64,000 nucleotides of DNA from Escherichia phage LYE-01. A program made the position numbers and the translations under genes. Positions 5,636-57,530 of this stretch are shown here, one piece after another. Under the pieces are notes generated by a model that was given only the letters and a program-made list of their open reading frames with translations, had not been told where the DNA came from and made no database searches. The DNA lies in the sequence record PQ303785.1; one strand, given 5' to 3'. The stretch's first letter is position 1. Each line of letters begins with the position of its first letter.

Positions 5636-7453
5636 ATGATTAAGAATGAAATTAAAATTCTGAGCGATATTGAACATATCAAAAAGCGTAGCGGCATGTA
5701 CATTGGCTCTTCCGCTAATGAAATGCATGAGCGCTTTCTGTTTGGTAAATGGGAAAGTGTTCAGTATGTACCTGGTCTTGTTAAGCTTATTGATGAAATT
5801 ATTGATAACTCAGTAGATGAAGGTATTCGTACTAAGTTTAAATTCGCAAATAAAATTAATGTTACTATCAAAAACAATCAAGTAACAGTTGAAGATAACG
5901 GTCGTGGTATTCCACAAGCGATGGTTAAAACACCTACCGGTGAAGAAATTCCTGGTCCAGTTGCTGCATGGACTATTCCAAAGGCAGGTGGTAACTTTGG
6001 TGATGATAAAGAACGCGTCACTGGTGGTATGAATGGTGTTGGTTCTAGTTTAACTAACATTTTTTCTGTGATGTTTGTCGGTGAAACTGGCGACGGTCAA
6101 AATAATATTGTAGTTCGTTGTTCAAATGGCATGGAAAATAAATCATGGGAAGATATTCCTGGAAAATGGAAAGGAACACGTGTTACTTTCATTCCTGATT
6201 TTATGTCATTTGAAACTAATGAGCTATCTCAGGTTTATCTTGACATTACACTAGATCGTCTCCAGACACTTGCGGTAGTTTATCCTGATATTCAATTTAC
6301 CTTTAATGGTAAAAAGGTTCAGGGTAATTTTAAGAAATATGCACGCCAATATGATGAACACGCTATCGTTCAAGAACAAGAAAATTGTTCTATTGCGGTT
6401 GGTCGTTCACCTGATGGTTTTCGTCAATTAACATACGTTAATAACATTCATACTAAGAATGGTGGCCATCACATTGACTGCGTTATGGATGATATTTGTG
6501 AAGACCTTATTCCACAAATCAAACGTAAGTTCAAAATTGATGTAACTAAAGCACGTGTTAAAGAATGTTTGACTATCGTTATGTTTGTTCGTGATATGAA
6601 AAACATGCGATTTGATTCTCAAACTAAAGAGCGTTTGACTTCTCCATTTGGTGAAATTCGTAGTCATATTCAGCTTGATGCTAAAAAGATTTCACGTGCT
6701 ATTTTAAATAATGAAGCAATTTTAATGCCAATCATTGAAGCTGCCTTGGCTCGTAAATTGGCGGCAGAAAAAGCAGCAGAAACTAAAGCAGCTAAAAAGG
6801 CTTCTAAAGCCAAGGTTCATAAACATATTAAAGCGAATCTTTGTGGTAAAGATGCTGATACTACTCTTTTCTTGACTGAGGGTGATTCTGCTATCGGATA
6901 TCTTATTGATGTTCGTGATAAAGAACTTCATGGTGGTTATCCATTGCGTGGTAAAGTTCTCAACAGTTGGGGTATGTCTTATGCTGATATGCTTAAAAAC
7001 AAAGAACTGTTTGATATTTGCGCAATCACTGGATTGGTTCTTGGTGAAAAGGCTGAAAACTTAAATTATCATAATATTGCAATTATGACCGATGCTGACC
7101 ATGATGGTCTAGGAAGCATTTATCCTTCTCTGCTCGGATTTTTTAGTAATTGGCCAGAACTGTTTGAACAAGGAAGAATTCGCTTCGTCAAAACTCCTGT
7201 AATCATCGCTCAGGTCGGTAAAAAACAAGAATGGTTTTATACAGTCGCTGAATATGAGAGTGCTAAAGATGCTCTACCTAAACATAGCATCCGTTATATT
7301 AAAGGACTTGGCTCTTTGGAAAAATCTGAATATCGTGAGATGATTCAAAACCCAGTATATGATGTTGTTAAACTTCCTGAGAATTGGAAAGAGCTTTTTG
7401 AAATGCTCATGGGAGATAATGCTGACCTTCGTAAAGAATGGATGAGCCAGTAG
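5636..7453 (+). CDS. 39: DNA topoisomerase II large subunit, uninterrupted 39+60 type
   Basis: 605 aa; GyrB-like ATPase N-terminus through Toprim region ending EWMSQ; DADHDG-LGSIY is continuous. Confidence 0.9.
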   Translation: MIKNEIKILSDIEHIKKRSGMYIGSSANEMHERFLFGKWESVQYVPGLVKLIDEIIDNSVDEGIRTKFKFANKINVTIKNNQVTVEDNGRGIPQAMVKTPTGEEIPGPVAAWTIPKAGGNFGDDKERVTGGMNGVGSSLTNIFSVMFVGETGDGQNNIVVRCSNGMENKSWEDIPGKWKGTRVTFIPDFMSFETNELSQVYLDITLDRLQTLAVVYPDIQFTFNGKKVQGNFKKYARQYDEHAIVQEQENCSIAVGRSPDGFRQLTYVNNIHTKNGGHHIDCVMDDICEDLIPQIKRKFKIDVTKARVKECLTIVMFVRDMKNMRFDSQTKERLTSPFGEIRSHIQLDAKKISRAILNNEAILMPIIEAALARKLAAEKAAETKAAKKASKAKVHKHIKANLCGKDADTTLFLTEGDSAIGYLIDVRDKELHGGYPLRGKVLNSWGMSYADMLKNKELFDICAITGLVLGEKAENLNYHNIAIMTDADHDGLGSIYPSLLGFFSNWPELFEQGRIRFVKTPVIIAQVGKKQEWFYTVAEYESAKDALPKHSIRYIKGLGSLEKSEYREMIQNPVYDVVKLPENWKELFEMLMGDNADLRKEWMSQ

Positions 7454-49543: not shown

Positions 49544-49746
49544 ATATAATTAATAAGATTTTTGGAATTCAGTACATTAAGGTCACATATAAAGTAACGT
49601 ATAAAGGTCCGTATACCGATGAACATGAAGAACCACAAGTTAAGTCTATTATATTAGAAAAGGACCCTAACTGGCCAGTTGAATTTCGTCTTCCTTGCTA
49701 TGGTCATTGGGCTGATGTTGAAATTATAAGTATTGAAAATGTCTGA
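49540..49746 (+). CDS. hypothetical protein (30.4 position)
   Basis: ORF track. Confidence 0.45.
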   Translation: MNIINKIFGIQYIKVTYKVTYKGPYTDEHEEPQVKSIILEKDPNWPVEFRLPCYGHWADVEIISIENV

Positions 49747-50197
49747 GCTAGAAATAAGAAGCAATTTTAGATGGCCATCATGTGCATTAAGCAATTTCGC
49801 CCAATGGCCTTTCGTTATGGATGGTATCCAATTTGGAGGTCTCGAAGGATTCCTTCAAGGATGTAAGGTGAAAAATGCTGAACAACAACGTCGTATATTT
49901 GGGTTATCCGGGCTTGCCGCCCAACAAGCTGGAAGGTCTTATGCTAGAGCTCAAGACCGTGGGACCCTCTTCTGGCTTGGAGTTCCGTTTTCAAGATACT
50001 CTCCAGCGTGGAAAGAATTATACACAAATGCATACTTTGAAGCAGCGATCCAAAACAAGGGCTTTCGTGATGCATTACAAGCCTCGAAAGGAAAAGTTTT
50101 GAAGCACAGCATGGCTAGTGGTCTAACAAAAGATGATACAATACTAACCGAAGCTGAATTTATTGATGTGTTAAACCTATTAAGAGACTCTCTATGA
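49733..50197 (+). CDS. possible NADAR/YbiA-like domain protein (30.3 position)
   Basis: LSNFAQWPFVMDGIQFGGLEGFLQGCK resembles the YbiA/NADAR core motif as I remember it; not verified. Confidence 0.35.
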   Translation: MKMSELEIRSNFRWPSCALSNFAQWPFVMDGIQFGGLEGFLQGCKVKNAEQQRRIFGLSGLAAQQAGRSYARAQDRGTLFWLGVPFSRYSPAWKELYTNAYFEAAIQNKGFRDALQASKGKVLKHSMASGLTKDDTILTEAEFIDVLNLLRDSL

Positions 50198-51033: not shown

Positions 51034-51302
51034 TGTTTGTTGTTCATACTATTTATGAAAATGAAGGTAATACTACACGTGATTACGGTCACGTAAATCA
51101 ATTTTTTAGATGCAATCCAGAATTCCGTGCTCAAAAAGACGAACGAATTTTTAAAAAATGTGTAGAACAAGGTTTCATTTACGTCAAGCACTGGATGCAA
51201 GGAAATAAAGTTAGAACTACATATCATAGGTCTTTGCCTGAGCTTAATGATGAATTGATTTATAATAGAGCTGTAAACCAAACCTTGAAGGATGAGCAAT
51301 GA
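51033..51302 (+). CDS. hypothetical protein (30.1 position)
   Basis: ORF track. Confidence 0.45.
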   Translation: MFVVHTIYENEGNTTRDYGHVNQFFRCNPEFRAQKDERIFKKCVEQGFIYVKHWMQGNKVRTTYHRSLPELNDELIYNRAVNQTLKDEQ

Positions 51303-52759
51303 TTCTTAAAATTCTGAATGAAATAGCATCTATTGGATCAACTAAGCAGAAGCAAGCAATTCTTGAAAAGAATAAAGATAATGAATTGCTTAAACGAGTA
51401 TATCGTCTGACTTATTCTCGTGGGTTACAGTATTATATCAAGAAATGGCCTAAGCCTGGTATTGCTACCCAGAGTTTTGGAATGCTGACTATTACCGATA
51501 TGCTTGACTTCATTGAATTCACGTTAGCTACTCGGAAATTGACTGGAAATGCAGCAATTGAGGAATTAACTGGATATATCACTGATGGTAAAAAGGATGA
51601 TGTTGAAGTTTTGCGTCGGGTTATGATGCGAGACCTTGAATGCGGTGCTTCAGTATCTATTGCAAACAAAGTTTGGCCAGGTTTAATTCCTGAACAACCT
51701 CAAATGCTGGCAAGTTCTTATGATGAAAAAGGCATTAGTAAGAATATCAAGTTTCCAGCCTTTGCGCAGTTAAAAGCAGATGGAGCTCGGTGTTTTGCTG
51801 AAGTCCGAGGCGATGAATTAGATGATGTTCGTCTTTTATCGCGAGCTGGTAATGAATATCTAGGATTAGATCTTCTTAAGGAAGAGTTAATCAAAATGAC
51901 TGCTGAAGCCCGCCAGATTCATCCAGAAGGTGTGTTAATTGATGGCGAATTGGTATACCATGAGCAAGTTGAAAAGGAACCAGAAGGCCTAGATTTTCTT
52001 TTTGATGCTCCTGAAATCAGTAAAGCTAAAGAGTTTGCCGAAGTAGCTGAATCTCGTACTGCTTCTAATGGAATCGCTAATAAATCTTTAAAGGGAACTA
52101 TTTCAGAAAAAGAAGCCCAATGTATGAAGTTTCAGGTCTGGGATTATGTTCCGTTGGTAGAAATATACGGTCTTCCGGCGTTTCGTTTAAAATATGATGT
52201 ACGTTTTTCTAAACTAGAACAAATGACATCAGGATATGATAAAGTAATTTTAATTGAAAACCAAGTAGTAAATAACCTAGATGAAGCTAAGGTAATTTAT
52301 AAAAAATATATTGACCAAGGTCTTGAAGGTATTATTCTCAAAAATACCGATGGATTGTGGGAAAATGCTCGTTCAAAAAATCTCTATAAATTTAAAGAAG
52401 TAATTGATGTTGATTTAAAAATTGTAGGAATTTATCCTCACCGTAAAGACCCTACTAAAGCGGGTGGATTTATTCTTGAATCAGAGTGTGGAAAAATTAA
52501 AGTAAATGCTGGTTCAGGCTTAAAAGATAAAGCCGGTGTAAAATCACATGAACTTGACCGTACTCGCATTATGGAAAACCAAAATTATTATATTGGAAAA
52601 ATTCTAGAGTGCGAATGCAATGGTTGGTTAAAATCTGATGGTCGCACTGATTACGTTAAATTATTTCTTCCAATTGCGATTCGTTTACGTGAAGATAAAA
52701 CTAAAGCTAATACATTCGAGGATGTATTTGGTGATTTTCATGAGGTAACTGGTTTATGA
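51299..52759 (+). CDS. 30: ATP-dependent DNA ligase
   Basis: 486 aa, MILKILNEIASIGSTKQKQAIL; adenylation-domain motifs. Confidence 0.9.
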   Translation: MILKILNEIASIGSTKQKQAILEKNKDNELLKRVYRLTYSRGLQYYIKKWPKPGIATQSFGMLTITDMLDFIEFTLATRKLTGNAAIEELTGYITDGKKDDVEVLRRVMMRDLECGASVSIANKVWPGLIPEQPQMLASSYDEKGISKNIKFPAFAQLKADGARCFAEVRGDELDDVRLLSRAGNEYLGLDLLKEELIKMTAEARQIHPEGVLIDGELVYHEQVEKEPEGLDFLFDAPEISKAKEFAEVAESRTASNGIANKSLKGTISEKEAQCMKFQVWDYVPLVEIYGLPAFRLKYDVRFSKLEQMTSGYDKVILIENQVVNNLDEAKVIYKKYIDQGLEGIILKNTDGLWENARSKNLYKFKEVIDVDLKIVGIYPHRKDPTKAGGFILESECGKIKVNAGSGLKDKAGVKSHELDRTRIMENQNYYIGKILECECNGWLKSDGRTDYVKLFLPIAIRLREDKTKANTFEDVFGDFHEVTGL

Positions 52760-52944
52760 AAGCTTACTTAGAAACAATTGTCGTGGCTCAAAAAGAAGGT
52801 GGAGATGTTTCTACTTCGGTATCACAAGTCATTCTCGAATTTGTAGATGCATATGCTTATAATAAATTTACAGAAACATTTGATGCCTACGAAAAAGGTC
52901 CAAAGTTTGAAATATATCGTACTCTCTTACCACTAGATTATTAA
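52756..52944 (+). CDS. hypothetical 62-aa protein
   Basis: ORF track; followed by hairpin terminator. Confidence 0.45.
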   Translation: MKAYLETIVVAQKEGGDVSTSVSQVILEFVDAYAYNKFTETFDAYEKGPKFEIYRTLLPLDY

Positions 52945-52960
52945 AGGCCTTCGGGCCTTT
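52943..52960 (+). terminator. hairpin terminator, identical to the one at 5566
   Basis: AAAGGCC-TTCG-GGCCTTT then AATTTT; precedes the alt late promoter. Confidence 0.55.
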
Positions 52961-52965
52961 AATTT

Positions 52966-52973
52966 TATAAATA
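52966..52973 (+). promoter_or_regulatory. late promoter (TATAAATA) for alt
   Basis: Exact TATAAATA between terminator hairpin and alt start. Confidence 0.65.
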
Positions 52974-52996
52974 GAATAAACACTAGAGAGGATATG

Positions 52997-55090
52997 ATGG
53001 AACTCATTACAGAATTATTTGACGAAGATACTACTCTTCCGATTACAAACTTAAATCCAAAGAAGAAAATACCACAAATTTTTTCAGTTCATGTTGATGA
53101 TGCAATTGAACAACCAGGCTTTCGTTTATGTACCTATACATCTGGAGGTGATACTAATCGCGATTTAAAAATGGGCGATAAAATGATGCATATTGTTCCT
53201 TTTACATTAACTGCTAAAGGTTCAATTGCTAAATTAAAAGGTCTCGGTCCAAGTCCAATTAATTACATCAATTCAGTTTTTACTGTTGCAATGCAGACGA
53301 TGCGTCAGTATAAAATTGATGCCTGTATGCTTCGTATTCTTAAGTCTAAAACTGCTGGTCAAGCTCGACAAATTCAAGTTATTGCTGATAGACTTATCCG
53401 TAGTCGTTCAGGTGGCAGATACGTCCTTCTTAAGGAACTCTGGGATTACGATAAAAAGTACGCATATATTCTTATACATCGCAAAAATGTATCACTAGAA
53501 GACATTCCAGGAGTTCCGGAAATTAGTACCGAGCTTTTTACTAAAGTCGAATCGAAGGTCGGCGATGTTTATATCAATAAAGATACTGGAGCTCAAGTAA
53601 CTAAAAATGAAGCAATTGCAGCATCTATTGCGCAAGAAAATGATAAACGTTCTGACCAAGCTGTAATCGTTAAAGTTAAAATTTCCCGTAGAGCAATTGC
53701 GCAAAGTCAATCATTAGAATCTTCTAGATTTGAAAGCGAATTATTCCAGAAGTATGAATCTACCGCAGCCAATTTTAATAAGCCTGCTACTGCTCCTTTA
53801 ATTCCAGAAGCAGAAGAAATGAAGCTTGGAATTAATTCATTAGCTTCTAAAACTAAGGCAGCAAAAATCATTGCCGAAGGAACCGCAGATGAACTTCACT
53901 ATGACTATAAATTCTTTTCAAAAAGTGAGGTTAATGAAGTTTCTGAAAAAATTAAAGATGTAATTCTTAATGCGATTAAAAATGAACCAACTACTTCAAT
54001 AAAATGTTTAGAGAAATACGCAGCAGCTGTTAATCAATTCTTTGAAGAATATAAAGATAATTGGCTTGATAAACATAATAAAACTCGTAAAGGACAGCCA
54101 GATGAAGTCTGGGAAGAAATAACTAAAAATTCCTGGAACGCAGCAAAAACTAAATTCCTCAAACGAATGATTTATAGCTTTTCTGGAATTGGTGCAGGTC
54201 CAATGATTGATATTACCATTGCCCGTGATGGTTCTAAATACACTCCATCGCAAAAGCGCGGAATTAGAGAGTATTGCGGATCAGGATATACTGACATCAA
54301 TAATCTTCTTTTAGGCCGCTACAATCCAGAACGATATGATGTAATGAGTGAAAAAGAAATTGAATCTGCGATAAATAATTTAGATTCAGCTTTTGAAAAT
54401 GGTGACCGTATACCAGAAGGCATTACAGTTTATCGTGCTCAAAGTATGACTGCTCCTATATATGAAGCACTAGTTAAAAATAAAGTGTTCTATTTCAGAA
54501 ATTTTGTATCTACTTCTTTAACTCCTATCATTTTTGGACGTTTTGGAATTACACATGCTGGTATCGGTCTTTTAGAACCAGAAGCTCGCAATGAATTAAC
54601 AGTTGATAAAAATGAAGAAGGAATAACTATTAATCCAAACGAAATAAGAGCGTATAAAGAAAATCCTGAATACGTTAAAGTTCAAATAGGATGGGCTATT
54701 GATGGAGCTCATAAAGTTAATGTTGTATATCCAGGAAGTCTCGGAATAGCAACAGAAGCTGAAGTTATTCTACCACGCGGATTGATGGTCAAAGTTAATA
54801 AAATAACTGATGCTTCTAATAATGATGGAACAACATCTAATAATACAAAACTCATTCAAGCTGAAGTTATGACTACGGAAGAACTCACCGAATCGGTAAT
54901 TTATGACGGTGACCGTCTAATGGAAACTGGTGAATTGGTTGCAATGACAGATGATATTGAAATAGAAGACAGAGTTGACTTTGCATCATTTGTTTCATCA
55001 AATGTTAAACAGAAAGCAGAATCATCTCTCGGAATTATTGCGTCTTGCATAGATATTACAAACATGCCTTACAAGTTCGTTCAAGGATAA
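52997..55090 (+). CDS. alt: ADP-ribosyltransferase Alt (head-packaged)
   Basis: MELITELFDEDTTLPITNL N-terminus; R (YRAQ), STS (FVSTSLTP) and ExE (EAEVILPRG) motifs; late promoter upstream. Confidence 0.85.
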   Translation: MELITELFDEDTTLPITNLNPKKKIPQIFSVHVDDAIEQPGFRLCTYTSGGDTNRDLKMGDKMMHIVPFTLTAKGSIAKLKGLGPSPINYINSVFTVAMQTMRQYKIDACMLRILKSKTAGQARQIQVIADRLIRSRSGGRYVLLKELWDYDKKYAYILIHRKNVSLEDIPGVPEISTELFTKVESKVGDVYINKDTGAQVTKNEAIAASIAQENDKRSDQAVIVKVKISRRAIAQSQSLESSRFESELFQKYESTAANFNKPATAPLIPEAEEMKLGINSLASKTKAAKIIAEGTADELHYDYKFFSKSEVNEVSEKIKDVILNAIKNEPTTSIKCLEKYAAAVNQFFEEYKDNWLDKHNKTRKGQPDEVWEEITKNSWNAAKTKFLKRMIYSFSGIGAGPMIDITIARDGSKYTPSQKRGIREYCGSGYTDINNLLLGRYNPERYDVMSEKEIESAINNLDSAFENGDRIPEGITVYRAQSMTAPIYEALVKNKVFYFRNFVSTSLTPIIFGRFGITHAGIGLLEPEARNELTVDKNEEGITINPNEIRAYKENPEYVKVQIGWAIDGAHKVNVVYPGSLGIATEAEVILPRGLMVKVNKITDASNNDGTTSNNTKLIQAEVMTTEELTESVIYDGDRLMETGELVAMTDDIEIEDRVDFASFVSSNVKQKAESSLGIIASCIDITNMPYKFVQG

Positions 55091-55093
55091 ATC

Positions 55094-57151
55094 ATGGAAC
55101 TTATTACAGAATTATTTGACGGCGCTTCGGCGCCGGTTGTTAACTTAAATCCTAAGCATAAAATACCTCAAATTTTTGCTATTCAAGCAGGCGAAGAAAG
55201 CGTGCTTCCTGGATTTAGATTTTGTACATACACCTCTGGCGGTGATACAAATAAAAACGTTAAGCCAGGCGATAAAATGATGCATATCGTAATGATAGGT
55301 GTCAATGAGAAACTATCATTAGTTAAACTTAGAAACTTGGGTGGAAATCCAATTGGTGTCATTAATGCGGTTTTTGATACTGCTCTTCAGACAATGAAAC
55401 AATACAAAATTGACGCATGCTTATTCCGCGTACTAAAGAGTAAAACAAATGGTGCAGCTCGTCAAATGCAAGTTATTGCCGACCGTTTAGTACGTACTAA
55501 AGGAGCAGGTCGATATGTTCTTTTAAAGGAAATCTGGGATTACGATAAAAAGTACGCATATATTATGGTTTACCGTAAAAATGCTAATTTAGAAGACATT
55601 CCAGGTGTACCTCCTATTTCAACTGAGTTATTCACAAAAGTTGAATCAAAGGTTGGTGATGTTTATGTAGATGTTAAAACAGGTAATGCTGTTCCTAAAG
55701 CTGTTGCTGTTGCTGCTTCTATTGCTTTAGAAAATGATAAGCGCACGGATCAAGCTGTTATTCAGAAAACTAAAATTAGTCGTCGGTTAGCAGCACAAGC
55801 TCAATATTCTACTGTCGATGCTTCACTTCAGGGTGATAGCTTCGCTGCTAAGAAATATCAAGAGTTTGAATCTAAAGTTCCGGTATATAAAGCAGAAGGA
55901 CCAATGAACTCTGGCGTTATTCAGGTTGGTTCAAACTTCAGCAAAGGAGCTATCGGTGGTATGAGAAGTGCTTCCCGTTTTAAATCTAGTGATTATGAAT
56001 TAGAAAGCTTCCGAAATCATATTGCATTGGCTCATGCGCGTTTACGTGATCCATCTATCAAGTTACAGAGCGATATATCATATCAAGGTTCTCAAGAATA
56101 TTTAAAGAATAAAGAATTTTTTGATTATAAAACTGATAAAATTTTAAGTGATCTTGCTGACATTAATATTTCTAATAGCTTTGATGTTATTAAGAAAATT
56201 GTCAATGATTTAGTTAAAGGTTCTAAAGCCACACCAGATGAAAAGGTAGCTATTGTTCAATTTGTCATGAATGGCGTTTATAAATTGATTAATGAGTCTG
56301 CTTCTCAAGCGTATGAATATGCAAGTACTGAAGTAACTCCAAAAGGATTAACTCAGGCTGAGTCTGATGTAATTGAAGATTATTGTGCAGATTCATATGT
56401 TGAAATGAACTCGTTCCTTTTAGGTAAACCGGATTCTACTCGTGAAGAATACATGGAACGAGCTATTAAACACATCGAGACAATGGATTCTGCCTTTGCC
56501 AAAGGATCAGTTCTTCCTCCAGGAACTACACTTTACCGTGGACAAGAAGTTACCTTTAAAACTTTACGTCATAATATTGAAAATAAAATGTTCTACTTCA
56601 AGAACTTCGTATCCACATCGCTTAAACCAAATATCTTCGGTGAGTATGGTAAAAACTATATGGCTCTAGATGATTCCGGCGCAGTATTTTCTGGTGAAGG
56701 AGAAGGTTCAGTTGACGCAGAAGATTTGATGCATATGGGCAGTCACTCTGCTTATGCGAATGAAGATGCTGAAACTAGCGTGGGTATGGTAATTAAAGGA
56801 GCTGAGCGAATCAAAGTTATCGTTCCAGGACATTTATCAGGATTTCCATCAGAAGCTGAAGTTATTTTACCGCGTGGAATTTTGCTGAAGATTAATAAAG
56901 TGAGTACGTACATGATGAAAGAAACTGCTTATAATAAGTATCTAATCGAAGGCACAATCGTTCCTCCTTCTGAACAATTAGAAGAATCGGTATATGATGG
57001 CGACCATCTAATGGAAACTGGTGAAGTTCGTCCAATGGCTGGATTTAATCAATTCCTTGTAGAAGAATCAAAAGAAGAGGAAAACGAAGTTTCTCAAATC
57101 TTGGCTTCTTTGGTTAACATCAACGGAATGTCTAAAAAGTTCAAGATGTAG
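55094..57151 (+). CDS. Alt paralog, second ADP-ribosyltransferase
   Basis: 685 aa; N-terminal ~200 aa nearly collinear with Alt; YRGQ / FVSTSLKP / EAEVILPRG motifs intact. Confidence 0.75.
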   Translation: MELITELFDGASAPVVNLNPKHKIPQIFAIQAGEESVLPGFRFCTYTSGGDTNKNVKPGDKMMHIVMIGVNEKLSLVKLRNLGGNPIGVINAVFDTALQTMKQYKIDACLFRVLKSKTNGAARQMQVIADRLVRTKGAGRYVLLKEIWDYDKKYAYIMVYRKNANLEDIPGVPPISTELFTKVESKVGDVYVDVKTGNAVPKAVAVAASIALENDKRTDQAVIQKTKISRRLAAQAQYSTVDASLQGDSFAAKKYQEFESKVPVYKAEGPMNSGVIQVGSNFSKGAIGGMRSASRFKSSDYELESFRNHIALAHARLRDPSIKLQSDISYQGSQEYLKNKEFFDYKTDKILSDLADINISNSFDVIKKIVNDLVKGSKATPDEKVAIVQFVMNGVYKLINESASQAYEYASTEVTPKGLTQAESDVIEDYCADSYVEMNSFLLGKPDSTREEYMERAIKHIETMDSAFAKGSVLPPGTTLYRGQEVTFKTLRHNIENKMFYFKNFVSTSLKPNIFGEYGKNYMALDDSGAVFSGEGEGSVDAEDLMHMGSHSAYANEDAETSVGMVIKGAERIKVIVPGHLSGFPSEAEVILPRGILLKINKVSTYMMKETAYNKYLIEGTIVPPSEQLEESVYDGDHLMETGEVRPMAGFNQFLVEESKEEENEVSQILASLVNINGMSKKFKM

Positions 57152-57180
57152 TTTACAAGTCACTCGTGTTGTGTTATAAT
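57151..57180 (+). promoter_or_regulatory. early promoter for the 96-aa ORF
   Basis: GTTTAC 57151-57156, perfect TATAAT 57175-57180. Confidence 0.6.
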
Positions 57181-57211
57181 AATCTTACTGACATAACATG
57201 AGGAACACAAA

Positions 57212-57502
57212 ATGAAATCTTCTTTGCGCTTTTTAGGTCAAGAACTCGTAGTTGAAGGCGTTATTCCTGCTGATAACGCTTTTAATGAAGCGGTTTACGA
57301 CGAATTTATCAAAATTTTTGGAACAGATAAAAAGTTCGGAATTTTTCCTTCTGAAAATTTTTCAAAGCCAGAACAGACTGAAAGCATTTTCCAAGGTGTA
57401 GTAACAGGTAAATTTGAGTCAGAAGCTCCGGTAAAAATTGAAGTTTATATTGAAGACAGTTTAGTTGCTTCAGTTGCTGCTTTTATTTCATTCCGTAAAT
57501 AA
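57212..57502 (+). CDS. hypothetical 96-aa protein
   Basis: ORF track; own early promoter; bidirectional terminator follows. Confidence 0.5.
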   Translation: MKSSLRFLGQELVVEGVIPADNAFNEAVYDEFIKIFGTDKKFGIFPSENFSKPEQTESIFQGVVTGKFESEAPVKIEVYIEDSLVASVAAFISFRK

Positions 57503-57508
57503 AAATAT

Positions 57509-57526
57509 GGGGACCTTTCGGTCCCC
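57509..57526. terminator. bidirectional hairpin between convergent genes
   Basis: GGGGACC-TTTC-GGTCCCC between the + ORF ending 57502 and gene 54 ending 57531. Confidence 0.6.
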
Positions 57527-57530
57527 ATTG

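Follow-up and report, generated by a model that had tools for sequence, protein, structure and literature searches.

Tandem Alt-type ADP-ribosyltransferase genes in Escherichia phage LYE-01 and the probable role of the second copy

What does a T4-type phage gain from a second, full-length gene of the Alt type? The question is raised by a 64,000-nucleotide stretch of Escherichia phage LYE-01 (sequence record PQ303785.1; hereafter the window), in which two genes for Alt-type ADP-ribosyltransferases (ARTs), here called copy 1 and copy 2, lie in tandem. The source is a T4-type phage (Tequatrovirus), with the same gene order around the pair as in T4. Taking the evidence presented below into account, we consider it probable that this locus encodes two late-expressed, head-packaged and injected mono-ADP-ribosyltransferases, namely Alt and an ancient paralogue, Alt2. 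The tandem pair as such is ordinary for this phage group.

Two Alt-type genes in tandem

The two genes and their parts are as follows (aa, amino acids).

52997-55090, + strand: alt (copy 1), 697 aa
Within copy 1, by residue: propeptide 1-6; N-terminal domain to ~236; helical middle 237-412; ART domain 413-632; C-terminal propeptide 633-697, after LTE-632
55094-57151, + strand: second alt paralogue (copy 2; alt.-2 or Alt2 elsewhere), 685 aa, the full-length counterpart of T4 alt.-1 plus alt.-2
55112-55798, + strand: N-terminal alpha/beta domain of copy 2, aa 7-235, 68% identical to copy 1, the proposed packaging "chassis"
55799-56338, + strand: helical middle of copy 2, aa 236-415, with 12% identity to copy 1 and 45% identity to the second copy of phage JS98
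56339-56986, + strand: ART catalytic domain of copy 2, aa 416-631, Pfam PF03496 (2.4e-20), ending at the LEE-631 motif
56537-56539, 56612-56620 and 56852-56860, + strand: catalytic codons of copy 2 for R482, S507/S509 and E587/E589, respectively
56987-57148, + strand: acidic C-terminal tail of copy 2, aa 632-685, a predicted propeptide for removal by the prohead protease

Copy 1 and copy 2 align by BLASTP at 41% identity over 717 columns (E 3e-157), with the identity distributed unevenly along the proteins, at 68% over residues 1-235, 12% over residues 236-415, 34% in the ART domain and 41% in the C-terminal tail. An earlier note on this DNA had described adjacent open reading frames of 697 and 685 aa with a shared N-terminal part and diverged middle regions, and this description is borne out: the coordinates and lengths are right, every peptide string quoted from the N-terminal part is found in the alignment, and the middle regions have diverged to the extent just given.

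Both proteins match PF03496 (ADPrib_exo_Tox), copy 1 with 129 bits and copy 2 with 73.2 bits, against a cut-off of 23.4. The catalytic motifs are YRAQ-479, FVSTSL-503 and EAEVILPRG-587 in copy 1 (residues R480, S505-T-S507 and E587-x-E589), and YRGQ-481, FVSTSL-505 and EAEVILPRG-587 in copy 2 (residues R482, S507-T-S509 and E587-x-E589). In a family alignment of 23 sequences spanning 42-95% identity, R482, S507, S509, E587 and E589 (copy 2 numbering) are invariant. Furthermore, the Arg and ExE of the Alt copies fall on the catalytic Arg and E/Q-x-E of CDTa and a C3-like ART in sequence and profile alignments, and those of copy 2 on the YRG and QxE/ExE positions of transferases in the Protein Data Bank (PDB; profile alignment). 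The pairwise alignment proposed in the earlier note as a check places the motifs at equivalent positions, and its statement that both copies keep the Arg / Ser-Thr-Ser / Glu-x-Glu residues stands. The pair is thus confirmed as tandem Alt-type genes for R-S-E ADP-ribosyltransferases, with catalytic motifs that correspond in position. The second Glu of ExE is required for the activity of T4 Alt, which is abolished by the E577A substitution, numbered from the first ATG (PMC11404850). Two adjacent ATGs open alt, both in the window (52994-52999, with the alternative ATG at 52994, 3 nt upstream) and in T4 (6501-6506 of our T4 locus, L001), and because of this the published E577 is E576 in the numbering of the 682-aa T4 Alt.

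An AlphaFold (AF2) model of copy 2 has a predicted local distance difference test (pLDDT) score of 74.7, with both termini disordered and values <50 for residues 629-685. This model matches Vis, C3bot, CDTa, Certhrax and VIP2 in Foldseek (probability 1.00, target-normalised template modelling score ~0.6), with E values of 1e-7 to 1e-4 for Vis, C3bot, CDTa and VIP2. No solved Alt structure was found in the PDB by sequence, where phmmer returned nothing for copy 2 and only weak CDTa/iota matches for copy 1. NCBIfam holds no family for either copy, and an exact-sequence look-up found neither Alt protein in the collection searched; copy 2 is covered end to end by phrog_802, the T4 Alt family, in each of its two halves (1.2e-117 and 2.9e-131).

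Copy 1 is the orthologue of T4 Alt (NP_049811, a head-packaged NAD+--arginine ADP-ribosyltransferase; T4 alt is represented in our comparison by L001 4455-6503). The two occupy the same site, between alt.1 and gene 54, and have in common the R/STS/ExE residues, the ITE-6 and LTE cleavage motifs and the promoter region. Their overall identity is 72%, with the first ~250 and last ~100 residues near-identical, as against 33% in the middle and 67% in the ART domain, such that the effector part of copy 1 is a different allele. Tequatrovirus copy 1 has at least two such effector alleles, the window/T2 type (697 aa, carried by T2 and present in 316 records) and the T4 type (682-684 aa); copy 2, unlike copy 1, is uniform within Tequatrovirus. 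Copy 2 aligns collinearly with T4 Alt, with the same domain order, the same catalytic motifs and both cleavage motifs, yet it belongs to a paralogous lineage separate from that of T4 Alt and copy 1 (41% identity overall, 12-16% in the middle and 34-36% in the ART domain).

A working gene and its remnant in T4

Copy 2 is found at full length in 398 phage records (93-99% nucleotide identity), its variable part at 95% protein identity or more in 401 records, and a 772-member protein cluster shares 98% identity with it; the T4-type remnant of 348 nt is found in ~95 further records. Both alt genes are present in T2, RB14, RB18, wV7, ime09, Bas45 and fD1, where the annotations include "Alt-like RNA polymerase ADP-ribosyltransferase (x2)", "alt.-2" (RB14) and "Alt2" (Bas45). 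The second alt genes of T2, RB14, ime09, wV7, Bas45 and fD1 (g200) are 685 aa long, lie at the same position and show 97-99% protein identity to copy 2, and are thus the same gene, without material difference. The tandem pair is therefore the majority arrangement in Tequatrovirus, already known and annotated, and the earlier note overestimated the novelty of the second copy: a duplication is also recorded in the T4 GenBank entry, and alt duplications are in print for 44RR and, in passing, for T4 alt.-1/-2 as paralogous (PMC1524935), as well as for JS98, Bp7 and Ac42 (PMC4177764). In the literature on "Alt2" and "alt.-2" we found no functional study of the second copy. Escherichia phage sutha (PV245934) has two annotated Alt-like genes, yet its match to copy 2 is confined to the final 128 nt, so that some Tequatrovirus-like phages may carry yet another allele of the second copy.

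Copy 2 is intact, at 685 aa, in all 12 phages examined. The mean pairwise ratio of nonsynonymous to synonymous substitution rates (dN/dS) among these phages is 0.041 at a dS of 0.20, and by region it is 0.020 in the N-terminal domain, 0.077 in the middle, 0.033 in the ART domain and 0.021 in the tail. Copy 2 is under strong purifying selection and is a working gene; given this ratio and the constant length of 685 aa in these phages, a decaying duplicate is excluded.

The earlier note placed only short alt.-n open reading frames at the second position in T4, and this is correct. T4 alt.-1 and alt.-2 (NP_049810 and NP_049809) align residue-for-residue with copy 2 residues 1-56 and 62-117, and their PHROG families (phrog_23015 and phrog_15247) score copy 2 at 140 and 131 bits, compared to 80 and 72 bits for copy 1. 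T4 is without one A of the A-run at window positions 55251-55255, a 1-nt frameshift, and without ~1.7 kb that the window holds between two short repeats, CTAAAGAGT at ~55434 and CTAAAAAGT at 57132. T4 alt.-1/alt.-2, described in the T4 GenBank record as an old duplicate of the beginning of alt, are shown by this comparison to be a frameshifted and deleted remnant of copy 2, while the window holds the undamaged gene.

Expression, delivery and the alternatives

The candidate expression signals of the pair are the following.

52943-52960, + strand: GC-rich hairpin AAAGGCCTTCGGGCCTTT, directly after the alt.1 stop (read from the sequence; identical in T4)
52966-52973, + strand: TATAAATA, a late promoter motif of the T4 type, located 24 nt ahead of the copy 1 ATG
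55083-55086, + strand: AGGA Shine-Dalgarno sequence of copy 2, inside the last copy 1 codons

The motif at 52966-52973 is the sole perfect late-promoter match within 52900-57250, in agreement with the observation of the earlier note that only copy 1 has a late promoter. Across the whole window this motif is found 9 times, compared to 9.4 expected by chance, and because this count is not above chance the motif is informative by position only. T4 has the same arrangement of hairpin, promoter and start upstream of alt, with the promoter at the same position. The hairpin is likely the terminator of the upstream early/middle unit; it was not called by the terminator scan. Copy 2 follows copy 1 after a gap of 3 nt (ATC) and has its own AGGA, again as had been noted. 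Between the two copies, the terminator scan found no terminator, and we found no internal promoter for copy 2, either late (52900-57250 for this motif) or middle.

On the delivery side, T4 Alt belongs to the prohead core, where it is present in ~40 copies, and the gp21 protease cleaves it behind ITE-6 and LTE-619 (PMC5694885, PMC9026906). The corresponding motifs are ITE-6 and LTE-632 in copy 1, and ITE-6 and LEE-631 in copy 2, at aligned positions, where LEE|SVYDGDHLMETGE of copy 2 aligns with the LTE-619 site of T4 Alt. The Glu residues of these motifs in copy 2, E6 and E631, are invariant in the 23 sequences, and trimming is predicted to give mature products of 70.1 kDa (copy 1) and 69.1 kDa (copy 2). 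A natural chimera is provided by phage ECML-134 (L004 2581-4641), whose single alt gene, of 686 aa, consists of copy 1 over its first ~470 nt and of copy 2 over the remainder; the crossover falls in the conserved WDYDKKYAYI block, where the chimera apparently arose via unequal crossover. Since this gene joins a copy 1 N-terminus to the remainder of copy 2, the N-terminal modules appear to be interchangeable, and since it is the sole alt gene of that phage, the copy 2 effector would seem to work on a copy 1 N-terminus. A virion proteome of fD1 is deposited as PXD026812.

We thus propose that a single late transcript from TATAAATA at 52966 would carry both genes, with copy 2 translated from its own AGGA site, 3 nt past the copy 1 stop. 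Both products would share a delivery chassis, comprising a 6-residue N-terminal propeptide ending in ITE, an N-terminal domain of ~230 aa and an acidic C-terminal propeptide after L-x-E, which may direct each protein to the core of the prohead, for both ends to be trimmed there by gp21. Between the chassis parts would sit a variable effector cassette, made up of the helical region and the R-S-E ART domain, whose ExE motif is of the kind seen in arginine-specific enzymes. Both enzymes would then be injected with the DNA and ADP-ribosylate arginines on different host proteins, where different sets of host proteins are expected from the difference in cassette between the two copies. The known targets of T4 Alt include R265 of RNA polymerase alpha and MazF (PMC2988021, PMC5408214), and T4 Alt, in contrast to Bas37 Alt, counters Mokosh type I (bioRxiv preprint 10.1101/2025.11.20.689424), such that Alt alleles differ functionally. 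Distinct targets are proposed for the two copies because their substrate-side regions have diverged, because each has long been conserved and because Alt alleles differ against Mokosh. For copy 2, transcription together with copy 1, packaging, trimming, injection and catalytic activity are all inferred, and so is a target range of its own. The suggestion of the earlier note that copy 2 may have been kept intact as another injected effector, whose range of targets differs, agrees with the evidence, given the low dN/dS, the conservation of both gp21 motifs and the divergence of the substrate-side regions.

The same observations bear on three other explanations. Copy 2 could be an active ADP-ribosyltransferase that is not packaged and acts as an intracellular late enzyme in the producing cell, as its sole apparent promoter is late, so that the protein is expected in the late cell, and as the other T4 ARTs, ModA and ModB, act intracellularly (PMC2988021). 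We judge this unlikely, since the N-terminal propeptide, N-terminal domain and C-terminal cleavage motif are those of the packaged Alt and evolve under a dN/dS of 0.02, tighter than the rest of the protein, and since the only alt gene of ECML-134 joins the effector of copy 2 to the N-terminus of copy 1. We hold it to be similarly improbable that copy 2 is mainly a structural, prohead-core component, or a redundant back-up with the targets of Alt, and in either case adds no specificity. In keeping with such a role, Alt figures in the literature both as a core protein and as an enzyme (PMC11404850), the ExE motif is of the arginine-specific type in both copies, and T4 thrives without copy 2; however, the ART domain and middle of copy 2 have only 34% and 12% identity to copy 1, yet 57% and 45% to the JS98-like orthologue, with a dN/dS of 0.03-0.08 in these regions, and so long a retention of two diverged lineages speaks against simple redundancy.

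Finally, copy 2 might be a non-functional, decaying duplicate on its way to the T4 state, to which we assign only a very slight probability. T4 and ~95 related records keep just the 348-nt remnant, and in the record of Shigella phage sb4 (L002, PQ666542) both alt genes, as well as gp48, are annotated as several fragments. The fragmentation in sb4, in that it also affects gp48, seems to stem from homopolymer errors in sequencing and not from true decay of the genes, and the full-length gene in 398 records, with an orthologue in another genus, argues against decay, while a pseudogene is ruled out by the dN/dS of 0.04 and the frames intact in 12/12 phages. Packaging and injection of two enzymes, Alt and Alt2, therefore remains our preferred reading of the locus.

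As in T4, the pair sits behind the late promoter, between DNA ligase/alt.1 and the baseplate genes 54-48-29, with the following neighbours.

51299-52759: DNA ligase, upstream neighbour of alt.1
52756-52944: alt.1 homologue, 62 aa, upstream neighbour of copy 1
57152-57180, + strand: promoter of sigma-70 type (T4 early-like) for alt.-3, TTTACA-17-TATAAT extended by TG, matching at 11/12 positions
57212-57502, + strand: alt.-3 homologue (DUF5498), 96 aa, a neighbour outside the alt pair
57507-57528: bidirectional hairpin terminator of alt.-3 (+) and gene 54 (-), with a perfect 9-bp stem (terminator scan)
Beyond alt.-3, opposite strand: baseplate genes 54, 48 and 29

The alt.1 product is annotated as hypothetical in T4; its homologue in the window has a match to Pfam PF24647 ("Phage blade protein", 2.2e-29). 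The promoter of alt.-3 is near consensus and begins 1 nt past the copy 2 stop; C-terminal extensions of T4 Alt.-3 allow escape from the CmdTAC defence system (PMC11618068). Elsewhere in the window, a nested pair of open reading frames in different frames, at 49733-50197 and 49875-50102, corresponds to T4 30.3 and 30.3' and is conserved.

Chassis, cassettes and known systems

JS98-like (Dhakavirus) coliphages and Aeromonas phage 44RR have the same tandem alt layout as the window (these pairs come from a scan of IMG/VR, which gave 12 loci). Outside the N-terminal part, the second copy of JS98 is the orthologue of window copy 2 (45% identity in the middle, 57% in the ART domain and 61% in the tail), and JS98 copy 1 goes together with window copy 1 and T4 Alt (27-35%, 55-60% and 55%, respectively). 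The N-terminal domains, in contrast, group by phage and not by orthologue: over the first 235 residues, the two copies within a phage are closest to each other (68% in the window, 65% in JS98 and 56% in 44RR, compared to 42-46% across genera). Quartet-informative sites in the N-terminal region support the same-phage, orthologue and third groupings in the ratio 48:8:2, and in the rest of the protein 3 sites support the same-phage grouping, compared to 57 for the orthologue grouping. The effector parts of the 44RR copies can be assigned to neither lineage of the window copies.

The simplest reading is that the alt duplication is older than the divergence of Tequatrovirus from the JS98-like phages, since the effector parts group by orthologue, and that the N-terminal module has been homogenised or replaced in each lineage by recombination with a boundary near residue 235-240, where the grouping of the N-terminal 235 residues by phage points to gene conversion or module exchange. 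Three examples support such exchange. In one JS98-like IMG/VR contig (L010, 1184-5356), the N-termini of copy 1 and copy 2 are 90-94% identical to each other, a sign of recent gene conversion. In another, IME281-like contig of the same group (L014, 1145-3229), the effector region of copy 1 is 90-98% identical to that of window copy 1 (with an 84% nucleotide match), as against 32-51% in the N-terminus and ~51% in the tail, which indicates the exchange of a cassette across genera. Acinetobacter phage ZZ1 has the N-terminal and effector parts of a second alt in two separate genes, with the break close to the boundary given above (PMC4177764).

More tentatively, we advance a broader picture, which we regard as possible while falling somewhat short of probable, in which the alt locus of T-even-type phages would be a polymorphic system of injected effectors. 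The chassis would be kept uniform by gene conversion, ART cassettes would be swapped between genes and genera, and Alt2 would be an injected enzyme with host targets of its own, perhaps in counter-defence, as for T4 Alt against MazF or Mokosh. T4 is the reference phage for Alt biology, yet it is a minority variant that has lost the second enzyme, and for most of its relatives, T2 and many phages put forward for therapy among them, the injection of two distinct ADP-ribosyltransferases is probable. Because of this loss, conclusions drawn from T4 on the host proteins modified at infection may be incomplete. As the genes are already in databases, the value of the present observations lies in follow-up rather than discovery, and the interest that remains is in the function of Alt2 and in the chassis/cassette pattern, both of which are approachable with existing phages and public data. 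Since Alt alleles differ against Mokosh, which proteins Alt2 and the alternative Alt cassettes act on is a concrete and testable question.

Beyond the phage Alt family, the Alt copies have the fold and catalytic triad of the C3-like and binary-toxin R-S-E ARTs of PF03496 (C3bot, Vis, CDTa, iota Ia and VIP2), although with only 13-21% identity. The Alt proteins add a phage-specific N-terminal domain and propeptides for delivery in the capsid, whereas the toxins use secretion or translocation components. The polymorphic toxins and MuF-fused phage effectors, among which Alt/VIP2 ARTs fused to MuF have been described (PMC9503650), resemble alt in having a conserved delivery part, a swappable effector and recombination at domain boundaries. 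The alt locus differs from these in that no MuF (SPP1 gp7-like) head-morphogenesis domain was detected at the N-terminus, in that its cassette has conserved sequence on both sides, and in that its variable domains are all ARTs.

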